Shown here in pieces: positions 12,518-15,500 of a stretch of DNA of 64,000 nt. A program made the position numbers and the translations under genes. Source of the stretch: a virus. Each line of letters opens with the position of its first letter. The stretch's first letter is position 1. The stretch covers positions 1-64,000 of the IMG/VR virus record IMGVR_UViG_3300024999_000044, one strand, 5' to 3'. The notes under the pieces were generated by a model. It worked only from the letters and a program-made list of their open reading frames with translations, was not told where the DNA came from and made no database searches.

Positions 12518-15500
12518 ATGAGCAAATTATTAGAAGGTTTAAACCCCTCACAACTGAAGGCAGTAACCACTATTGATGGTATAGTGCAGATTTGTGCAGT
12601 TGCTGGTAGTGGGAAATGTATTACAGGGAATAGCTACATTTTTACTGACAAAGGAATGGTGAAGATTCAGGACATACCGAACCATTATGAGGTATCTATG
12701 GAGGGAGAATCCCAAGCTACTGTAGTATCGCCAGATCCTACCAAGAGCAGCACTAGTTTGGCTAAAACGTCCCATTGGTATAATTTGGGAAACTCTGAAA
12801 CCATACGAGTAAAAACCGCGTATGGTTATGAGATAGAGGGCACCCCTGAACACCCCGTAGTGGTGTTAGAGGGAGATTCTTTAAAGTTTAAAGAACTAAG
12901 AGATGTAGTTACTGAGGATCTTATAGCCATAAGCATGACTAATGATCTGTGGGGATGCAATCCTAAAGTAAGCACAGACTTGGGGTATTTTATTGGTCTT
13001 CTTATCGGGGATGGGTATCTGAATCAAAGAGGGAGCATTAGTTTTGCAAAAATAGATGGAGAATTTGCTAACAATTATGTGACTTTATTTGAGAAGTTAT
13101 TTAATAAGACCCCAGCTAGGAACAAAAAGGACAATGAAAATTCAGTGTCTTGGGGGGTTAGTAGCGTCCCTTTATGGGAATATCTTAAAGATGATATAGG
13201 TTTAAAGATGACCACAGCAGAATATAAGGAGATACCTGCAAGTATTCTATCCGCCCCTAAAGAGGTTATCATTTCATGCTTGCAGGGCATCTTCGATACA
13301 GATGGGGGAGTGAATGAAAGTAAACGTACTTTTGAATACTCTACGTTTTCAAAAGAATTAGGTACGCAGATACATCTTTTGCTCCTAAATTTAGGGATTG
13401 CTAGCAGAATTAAGGTGAGAACTAATAAATATGGAGATCATCAATATATCTATATTGGGGGATCTAATTTAAGATTATTTAAAGATTTAGTAGGGTTTAA
13501 ATGGGCTTTGGACAAGCAGAAGAAGTTAGAGTATTCATGCGAGGTCAAACCTAACGATAATGTAAATTTAGTGCCCAACCAACAACTACGGTTAAGCAGA
13601 ATGAGGGAAAAAATGATAGGCAAGCCTTACTTAAAAAACAGATCCAAATTGGTAAGACCTAATGACTTGCCATTATTAACATATGCAGATTATGAAAAAG
13701 GTAGGAGAAGCTTAACTAAAAATACAATCAATGACATCTTATCAATTATAGACTTCCAAGATGAAGACACTAAGATACTGCACTACCTAGCTAATTGTGT
13801 GTTTTTAGATCCAGTAACTGAGGTTTCCAGTTCAAAAAATGTAGTGTATGATTTCACGGTGCCAGAAACACATTCATTTGTATCTAATGGATTTATAAGT
13901 CATAATACTCACGTTCTAACCCGTAGGGTTGCTTACATGATTGAGCAGGGCATCAAGCCCTCATCCATATTGTGTACCACCTTTACCAAAAAAGCCACTG
14001 AAGAAATGGTAGCTAGGATGGGTGGCCTAATCTCCAAAATGAAGCTAAATATGATCACAATTGGCACTACTCACTCCATCGGGTACAAAATCCTCTCCAA
14101 GGAATATCAGAATATGAATCACCCCATGGCTTCTGCGTTTAAGAAGGATATACTCATCAATGGAAAGCAGAAGTTCTTTATTCAGGATATTAAAAAGGCC
14201 TTACTACTTGACCGTACTATTCCTTTCTCAGTTAAGGAGGAAATCAGGGATATTGCCCCTATGCAACTTGCAAAGGCAATGGGTTTGAGCAATAATGCAG
14301 GTGTAGATTGTTATGACTACAAGCGTGAGCACACTGGTAAAGGTCCTAGAATGGAAGCCTATATTGAGATGTTTGTAAAGTATGAAGAAGCTAAGAAACA
14401 ACAACGTCTAATAGATGCTGATGATCTCTTAGTGCTTCTAGTTAAACTGTTTAAAGAGCACCCGGACGTTTTAGCTAAGTATCAGAGATTTTACAAGTAC
14501 CTGCTGGTTGATGAGAGTCAAGACAACAACGCGATGCAGTGGGAGCTTGTTAAGATGATCGGCAAACCGGAGAACAACATACTGGTGGTAGGAGATGATG
14601 ACCAGGCTATGTACTCTTTCCGGGGAGCTGTACCTGGGGAGTTTATTCACCTTAGGGATAACTGGAGAGGTGTTCAGCAAATGAATATGGAAGATAATTA
14701 CCGTTCCAACCCTGCTATTCTGGATACAGCCAACCTTCTCATTAGGAACAATACAGAACGTTTAGTTAAGCAGCTCAAAGCACATAAGGTTGATCCGGTA
14801 AAATGTGTTAACTACTCTCATTACGCAGATGAGACGGAAGAGGCCATTAACATTGTTAAGGAAACAAGTCTATTAATAGAACAGGAAGGCATTACCCCTA
14901 AGAGCGTAGCAGTTCTGTATCGGACTAATGCGCAGTCTAAAGCATTAGAAGACCAACTCATCATAGCAGGACTACCATACGTTATCCATGGCGGAATTAG
15001 CTTCTATGAGAGAAAAGAAGTAAAGGACATAATTGCTTACATGAAGCTGGCTGTGGATAGTGACGACGATGATGCTTTCAAGCGTGTTATTAATGTTCCG
15101 ACTAGGTTTCTTGGTAAAGCATTTCTGGATAAGGTCAGTGCTTTCAATGGTTCCAGGTATGAGGCTCTAGGGAGTGGCAGCATAATACTAAAACCGTATG
15201 AAAAGAATGGGTCTAAAGAGTTTGTGGGACATATCCAGGAGCTAATCAGGATGTCCGCTGAAAATACCCCAACAGAAATGCTTGAATACATCATGTCAGA
15301 TGAGGGTGTAGGTTACGCTAAGCACATCACCACTGAGGAGGGAGATACTGAAGACGAGGGCAACTCCCGCCTAGAGAACATTGAAACTCTCAGATATGCT
15401 CTTAGTAAGCAGGAGAATATTAAGTCTTTCCTAGACTATATCACCTTGATGACAAGTGCTGTCAAGAGTTCTATTGATGGTGTGCAGTTGATGACTATAC

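Follow-up and report, generated by a model that had tools for sequence, protein, structure and literature searches.

We analysed a window of viral DNA, the whole 64,000-nucleotide stretch at positions 1-64,000 of IMG/VR record IMGVR_UViG_3300024999_000044 (all coordinates below are window positions), in which a UvrD-like helicase gene contains a 430-residue insert. The insert is very probably a class-1 intein of the canonical type, within which a two-motif LAGLIDADG homing endonuclease is nested. It keeps the reading frame and separates Lys33 from Thr34 in the Walker A motif (GSGK/T; a slash marks the junction throughout) of a UvrD/PcrA-like superfamily 1 (SF1) helicase that belongs to a SPO1-like (Herelleviridae-like) phage of about 142 kb. 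The anatomy of the sequence, the family to which it belongs, its predicted fold, the empty site in a syntenic orthologue, its sporadic distribution and its distinct base composition all point to this reading, under which the element would splice and would cleave DNA. The features of the gene are as follows.

12518-15769, + strand: UvrD-like helicase precursor, an open reading frame (ORF) of 1083 residues with no interruption
12518..12616, + strand: N-extein, 33 residues, ending with the first half of Walker A (AVAGSGK)
12617..13906, + strand: class-1 intein, complete, 430 residues, 48.5 kDa, from Cys1 to His429-Asn430 (precursor residues 34-463)
12617..12865, + strand: N-terminal splicing region, with block A (Cys1, CITGNSYIFTDKG) and block B (GYEIEGT76PEH79PVVV); TIGR01445 match over residues 1-83, 46-49 bits
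12980..13015, + strand: LAGLIDADG motif 1, LGYFIGLLIGDG, intein residues 122-133 (LGYFIGLLIGD132G, with the predicted catalytic Asp132); Pfam LAGLIDADG_3
13277..13306, + strand: LAGLIDADG motif 2, CLQGIFDTDG, intein residues 221-230 (Asp227, Asp229), with the conserved Lys204 upstream
13841..13906, + strand: C-terminal splicing region, with block F (VVYD412FTVPETH419SFV) and block G (NGFISH429N430); TIGR01443 match
13907..15769, + strand: C-extein, 620 residues and the stop codon; Pfam UvrD-helicase and UvrD_C

Translation of 12617-13906 on the + strand gives 430 codons without a stop, starting with CITGNSYIF (the Cys1 codon occupies nucleotides 12617-12619) and ending with SNGFISHN. The flanks read ...QICAVAGSGK on the N side and THVLTRRVAYMIEQG on the C side. 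Removal of the insert gives AVAGSGK/THVLTRR, and the predicted ligated junction peptide is ...AVAGSGKTHVLTR. The original prediction, which was made from the sequence alone, had read AVAGSGK followed by Cys and 429 further residues ending in SHN; its boundaries are exact to the base and every residue that it quoted is present, including both LAGLIDADG motifs and the block A and block G hallmarks (Cys1, the terminal HN and Thr+1), to which blocks B and F can be added. It had also placed the insertion in the Walker A motif of a UvrD-like helicase, where we find it between Lys and Thr, and had held that excising the 430 residues restores GSGKT. The helicase domain bears this out: the Pfam UvrD-helicase match, truncated in the unspliced precursor (profile 27-267, 196.7 bits), becomes continuous in the spliced product (PF00580, profile 1-267, 222.4 bits).

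Profile searches identified the insert as an intein. Four curated hidden Markov models (HMMs), the kind of check that had been suggested for this insert, matched the precursor above their cut-offs: Pfam Intein_splicing (PF14890, 47.3 bits versus a cut-off of 35.8), Pfam LAGLIDADG_3 (PF14528, 64.6 versus 22.5, with the best stretch at intein residues 217-293), TIGR01445 intein_Nterm (46.4 versus 24.5) and TIGR01443 intein_Cterm (31.4 versus 15.6). These intein and LAGLIDADG matches are far beyond chance, and the family HMM scored the intein at 503 bits. When run against all six-frame ORFs of the window, the family HMM detected no second intein; an ORF at 33128-33973 gave only a 14-bit match with no Pfam support and was dropped as a candidate.

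A protein search recovered 67 full-length relatives, all of which are inserted at GxGK/T and which share 29-53% identity with the window intein. We counted conservation over an alignment of these 67 relatives and aligned 44 precursors separately. Among the splicing residues, Cys1, Thr76, Asp412, His419, His429 and Asn430 are each present in 67/67 relatives and His79 in 66/67, and the aligned relatives show little or no variation at the flanking Gly-Lys and Thr+1. The endonuclease residues are similarly retained, with Asp132, Lys204 and Asp227 each in 67/67 relatives and either Asp or Glu at position 229 in 66/67.

An AlphaFold2 model built from the alignment of relatives had a mean predicted local distance difference test score of 95.0 and a predicted template-modelling (TM) score of 0.93. 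When this model was compared to the PDB using Foldseek, the top matches were full-length endonuclease inteins, namely TliVMA (7qss; E 5e-26, TM 0.74), PI-PfuI (1dq3; TM 0.70), PI-PkoII and PI-SceI. These were followed by the free-standing LAGLIDADG enzymes I-DmoI, I-Tsp061I and I-SceI, which align over the central domain, and by mini-inteins (Ssp DnaB; 1mi8, 6frg), with each match limited to its own sub-domain. A sequence search of the PDB agrees with this result. Thus, by predicted structure the insert carries a HINT fold, and by motifs, family HMM and fold it contains a two-motif monomeric LAGLIDADG homing endonuclease that is predicted to be catalytically active. A helical segment (intein residues ~298-393) lies between the endonuclease core and block F. 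HMMs, conserved blocks and predicted fold therefore all agree with the original assignment of the insert as an intein.

In the comparison with intein-less homologues, intact GSGKT is present in phage CP-51 gp140, in two metagenomic loci (L006 and L007) and in 17 of 18 IMG/VR loci. CP-51 gp140 reads MSKFLDGLN...INAVAGSGKTRVLTHR and has no insert. We recovered L006 and L007 by an exact-pattern scan of JGI metagenomes with a conserved 29-mer from upstream of the gene; the same exact-pattern scan of IMG/VR gave no match. They represent the nearest lineage, with 88% extein identity to the window, and both have an empty site that reads GCA GGA TCA GGC AAA/ACT CAT GTT (AGSGK/TH). The L006 contig (37.6 kb) is collinear with window positions 2639-12606 and resumes at 13904-14496, skipping ~12607-13903. 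The gap opens ~10 nucleotides ahead of the intein, as the flanking sequence has diverged at that point. Since L006 skips essentially only the intein, the insertion is a precise in-frame addition of 1290 nucleotides with no target duplication.

Inserts at this site are rare among orthologues. A single-protein scan of IMG/VR found no relative, and relatives were recovered by an alignment-based scan. Among the 18 IMG/VR orthologues with a readable P-loop, only L011 (the contig that encodes protein P0003) carries a P-loop insert, while the other 17 read AGSGKT. Using tblastn, we detected the insert in none of 251 GenBank phage records, in which coverage of the precursor never exceeds 58%.

Among intein-less proteins in the database, P0002 is the closest, but it does not offer a clean empty site, as its Walker A motif reads GSPCS. 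P0002 is encoded by L004:331-2298 (JGI 3300025154, contig Ga0209417_1045898), a single 2.3-kb contig from one sample. Over the first 926 nucleotides, L004 is identical to L007 except for seven substitutions within eight nucleotides (gene nucleotides 93-100), exactly at the homing site. The change from TCA GGC AAA ACT to TCG CCC TGC TCT converts GSGKT to GSPCS, with loss of the catalytic Walker A Lys, and the variant site reads TCGCCCTGCTCT. This patch could be an endonuclease-escape or repair scar, or an artefact of assembly or reads. We rejected an imprecise intein deletion, a reverse-complement inversion and a frame change as explanations, as the patch leaves the length unaltered and does not match the intein termini.

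The host protein is a UvrD/PcrA-like SF1 helicase, as judged by its Pfam domains and by helicase motifs I-VI. Precursor residues 464-1056 match UvrD-helicase, AAA_19, UvrD_C and UvrD_C_2. Splicing in silico yields a 653-residue, 73.6-kDa product in which UvrD_C (PF13361) scores 187 bits and a motif search finds motifs I (AVAGSGKT), Ia, II (DESQD), III (GDDDQAMYSFRGA), V and VI (VAVTRA). The N-extein aligns with the first 33 residues of CP-51 gp140, P0002, L006 and L007. In the NCBIfam equivalog models, the protein falls below the cut-offs for pcrA (TIGR01073, 410 bits versus 911), uvrD and rep; we therefore name it UvrD-like rather than PcrA or UvrD proper. Compared to the intein-less allele, the exteins have a ratio of nonsynonymous to synonymous substitution rates (dN/dS) of ~0.05 at a dS of ~1.8, which indicates strong purifying selection. 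The helicase is thus presumably functional, and for that the intein must splice. It is also conserved among SPO1-like phages and may be essential.

From established intein chemistry and the conserved residues, we propose the following mechanism. A 122-kDa precursor would be translated with a split P-loop and would neither bind nor hydrolyze ATP. Cys1 would undergo an N-S acyl shift, aided by Thr76 and His79 of block B, and the hydroxyl of Thr+1 would attack the resulting thioester (trans-esterification). Asn430 would then cyclise, aided by His429 and by Asp412 and His419 of block F, and an O-N shift would yield the 73.6-kDa helicase with an intact GSGKT and a free 48.5-kDa intein. As Thr+1, the first residue of the C-extein, is both the splice nucleophile and the Thr of Walker A, ATPase activity would be expected only after splicing. 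The endonuclease, freed or still nested, would use Asp132 and Asp229 as metal ligands. During co-infection, its cut around GCAGTTGCTGGTAGTGGGAAA/ACTCACGTTCTAACCCGTAGG in alleles that lack the intein would be followed by recombinational repair, which would copy the intein into the cut allele (homing).

The catalytic residues are intact, the distribution is sporadic and the GC content is lower than that of the host gene (36.9% in the intein, 42.5% in the exteins and 42.2% in the window; 34.7% and 43.4% at the third codon positions of intein and exteins), all of which suggest that the intein may still be mobile. Horizontal transfer is also indicated by a Bacillus smithii-type UvrD, where the intein (48% identity) is better conserved than the host gene (33% extein identity). 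A different explanation, which we regard as unlikely though deserving of attention, is that the intein splices but its endonuclease is inactive or has run out of targets, such that the element is at a late stage of the homing cycle and is inherited only vertically. The nearest relative, P0004, has an intein identity of only 53% and a similar extein identity of 56%, which would fit long vertical co-descent within a SPO1-like subgroup (for P0003, the values are 47% and 59%), and we found no near-identical intein in another genetic background. However, Asp132, Asp229 and Lys204 are all kept, the LAGLIDADG domain is complete and confidently folded in the model, the closest sampled lineage has empty sites, and the intein GC content is still 5.6 points below that of the host gene and thus has not ameliorated. 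We favor an endonuclease that is potentially active, and note that "active mobile DNA" inside an "essential gene", as the original prediction put it, is stronger wording than the evidence carries.

The position of the insertion also raises the possibility that the intein has taken on the role of a post-translational switch, whereby conditional splicing would allow ATPase activity only under permissive redox conditions, metal ions or temperature. We consider this improbable. With its ATP-binding loop interrupted by the insertion, the precursor must be inactive, and there is precedent in mycobacterial DnaB P-loop inteins, which are reported to respond to zinc and to oxidative stress (PMC6195587, PMC7360933). 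The intein contains four Cys residues besides Cys1 (114, 221, 308 and 394), and a further Cys lies in the N-extein, at position -8. However, the -8 Cys is also found in intein-less alleles and is thus not an adaptation linked to the intein, and most orthologues manage without an intein. The idea that this helicase family normally has the segment as an accessory domain, or that the insertion does not splice and has inactivated the gene, is effectively refuted by the empty sites, since orthologues lack exactly this segment while keeping GSGKT, and it is further at odds with the intact splicing residues, the extein dN/dS of 0.05 and the interruption of four unrelated ATPase families at the same dipeptide by the same intein family.

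Three points weigh against a splicing and mobile intein. Splicing could be slow or conditional, given that a Thr at +1 is less nucleophilic than a Cys or Ser. All seven contigs with the window allele, the longest of which is 141.9 kb, encode an identical protein, so gain or loss at the population level is not visible. With P0004 as the nearest intein relative at only 53% identity, no recent donor or homing event is documented. A class-1 intein with a nested homing endonuclease nonetheless remains much the best account of the insert. It is real but ordinary, a well-known kind of selfish element at the best-known landing site.

We examined the relationships between this intein and its relatives. 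The 67 relatives (proteins P0012-P0120; L001:2883-5627) reside in UvrD-like, DnaB_C-type and RecD-like helicases and in FtsH AAA proteases. In a neighbor-joining tree with 200 bootstraps, the window intein grouped with those of P0004 and P0003 in 97.5% of replicates, and with the B. smithii group added in 90%. UvrD-hosted inteins were monophyletic in 0/200 bootstraps, and one UvrD subgroup joined the inteins of Herelleviridae DnaB-like helicases in 71%. Neighbor joining on sequences this divergent is only suggestive of extein switching. It is quite possible, if still short of probable, that these inteins form one clade that is specialized in the Walker A Lys/Thr junction and has repeatedly switched among non-homologous P-loop NTPases, with the codons of the shared nucleotide-binding motif as the landing pad and large Firmicute phages as the vehicles. 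Extein switching via a shared nucleotide-binding motif has already been proposed for actinophage TerL and Cas4 inteins (bioRxiv 10.1101/2025.01.02.630785).

The helicase also points to the kind of phage that carries it. Its best tblastn matches were to SPO1-like Bacillus phages: CP-51 gp140 (54.6% identity), JL, Shanette and SPO1 gp34.33 (51%). A megablast search with the gene found no match among 50,697 phage records, and the phage is therefore without a close sequenced relative. The window also encodes a terminase large subunit, ParB-like nucleases and a protein with a major-vault-protein (MVP) shoulder domain. We conclude that the host is an unsequenced, ~142-kb, Herelleviridae-like (SPO1-like) metagenomic phage.

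Several other genes of the window are of note in their own right. Upstream of the helicase, 9691-12189 (+) encodes an 832-residue protein with the MVP shoulder domain (PF11978, 92.9 bits), a sub-threshold Vault_3 repeat and no PHROG match, which is unusual in a phage. At 56789-57661 (+), a 290-residue ORF contains two NUMOD3 motifs (68.7 bits) and has a weak PHROG homing-endonuclease match. It ends 35 nucleotides inside the start of the terminase large-subunit ORF (57627-59291 (+); phrog_675, E 4.5e-177) and probably represents a free-standing homing endonuclease encoded beside the terminase. Downstream of the terminase, two large adjacent ORFs, 59218-61047 (+) and 61305-63935 (+), have ParB-like nuclease PHROG matches, the second of these to phrog_26588 (E 9e-173).

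Two signals lie directly before the helicase gene.

12440..12468, + strand: promoter-like element (TTGACT, 17 nucleotides, TG-GAAAAT) from a consensus scan
12503..12508, + strand: ribosome-binding site AGGAGG, read from the sequence, nine nucleotides before the ATG at 12518

The promoter-like element (TTGACT-17-TGnGAAAAT) and an adjacent hairpin, GTGGGGAAGAATCCCCAC, together occupy 12440-12491 (+), just before the ribosome-binding site. The window, L004, L006 and L007 share a 29-nucleotide stretch that forms the promoter-like core, GGATTCCATGAGAAAATTAGGCGTGGGGA, without a single difference, although the coding regions are only ~79% identical, and the promoter-like stretch stays near-identical in the intein-less lineage. 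We regard the element as a putative promoter.

The finding leaves the current understanding of inteins unchanged. It has consequences for annotation, where the appropriate entry for the gene is a single helicase precursor with a mat_peptide join, in place of a "large helicase" or a fusion. For the UvrD-like helicase of the SPO1 family, Walker A becomes a second, independent intein site beside the motif III site of SPO1 and CampHawk. The window intein and its relatives are also a clean data set for studying how inteins hop between unrelated genes via a shared nucleotide-binding motif. The compact, confidently folded Thr+1 intein might also serve as a tool, and it and its LAGLIDADG enzyme, which has a defined 42-bp candidate target, could be easily characterised.

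The original description of the P-loop as a classical intein site agrees with the literature. K/T has been called the "classic" P-loop insertion (PMC5050341), and Novikova et al. listed UvrD, with 16 inteins and Firmicutes included, among the top 15 bacterial intein hosts and stressed the clustering of inteins in P-loops (PMC4760082). Like the classic P-loop inteins (mycobacteriophage TerL1-a, DnaB-b, MCM-a/RFC-S-a; PMC5050341, PMC4760082), the window intein separates the invariant Lys of GxxxxGK/T from its nucleophilic Thr, has class 1 residues (Cys1 ... HN / Thr+1) and resides in a DNA-dependent ATPase. Unlike them, its host is a phage UvrD-like SF1 helicase, and it is only 30-40% identical to the relatives that we recovered from DnaB-like, RecD-like and FtsH hosts. 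The closest deposited-phage match, the intein in the DnaB-like helicase of Bacillus cereus phages vB_BceH_LBC2 and LY2, is 36.9% identical over the full 430 residues and shares the architecture of the window intein, with a GTGK/C...SHN/T junction. However, it resides in a replicative helicase of the DnaB_C type (SF4/RecA-like), a protein without homology to UvrD outside the P-loop.

The nearest systems share host family (UvrD/PcrA), junction (GSGK/C...HN/T) and intein clade with the window. They comprise the metagenomic SPO1-like phage proteins P0003 (L011) and P0004 (L010), at 47-53% intein identity, and the B. smithii-type proteins P0012, P0014 and P0015, at 48%. The B. smithii group differs in that its exteins are only 33% identical and it lies in a mobile-element-like region, not in a SPO1-like phage. 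In one such locus, L008:8001-11102 (B. smithii GCA_050481085.1), the UvrD-like gene with the 48%-identical intein at the same site is annotated as a "3'-5' exonuclease". Its neighbors are FtsK/SpoIIIE, RecD2-like, ParB_N-HNH and DarA_C genes, which suggests that this locus is a mobile element.

SPO1 gp34.33 and its CampHawk counterpart are orthologous helicases (51% extein identity), and they too are intein-bearing genes of SPO1-like phages. Their GenBank-annotated intein, however, is at motif III (VGDDDQ/C...THN/SMYSFRG), and in SPO1 (L003:3712-4536) it has 275 residues and no LAGLIDADG_3 Pfam match. We rejected the possibility that the window intein is an allele of the SPO1 intein, as the sites differ and there is no significant similarity (BLASTP E 0.17). 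Since the two inteins are unrelated and occupy Walker A and motif III, the orthologous helicase has been invaded at least twice, independently, at two catalytic motifs. At the level of predicted structure, the window intein resembles TliVMA (7qss), PI-PfuI (1dq3), PI-PkoII (2cw7) and PI-SceI (1vde), as it would share with them a HINT domain and a nested pseudo-dimeric LAGLIDADG domain (TM 0.5-0.74). These inteins are only 11-22% identical to it in sequence, and their hosts are V-ATPase, ribonucleotide reductase and DNA polymerase.

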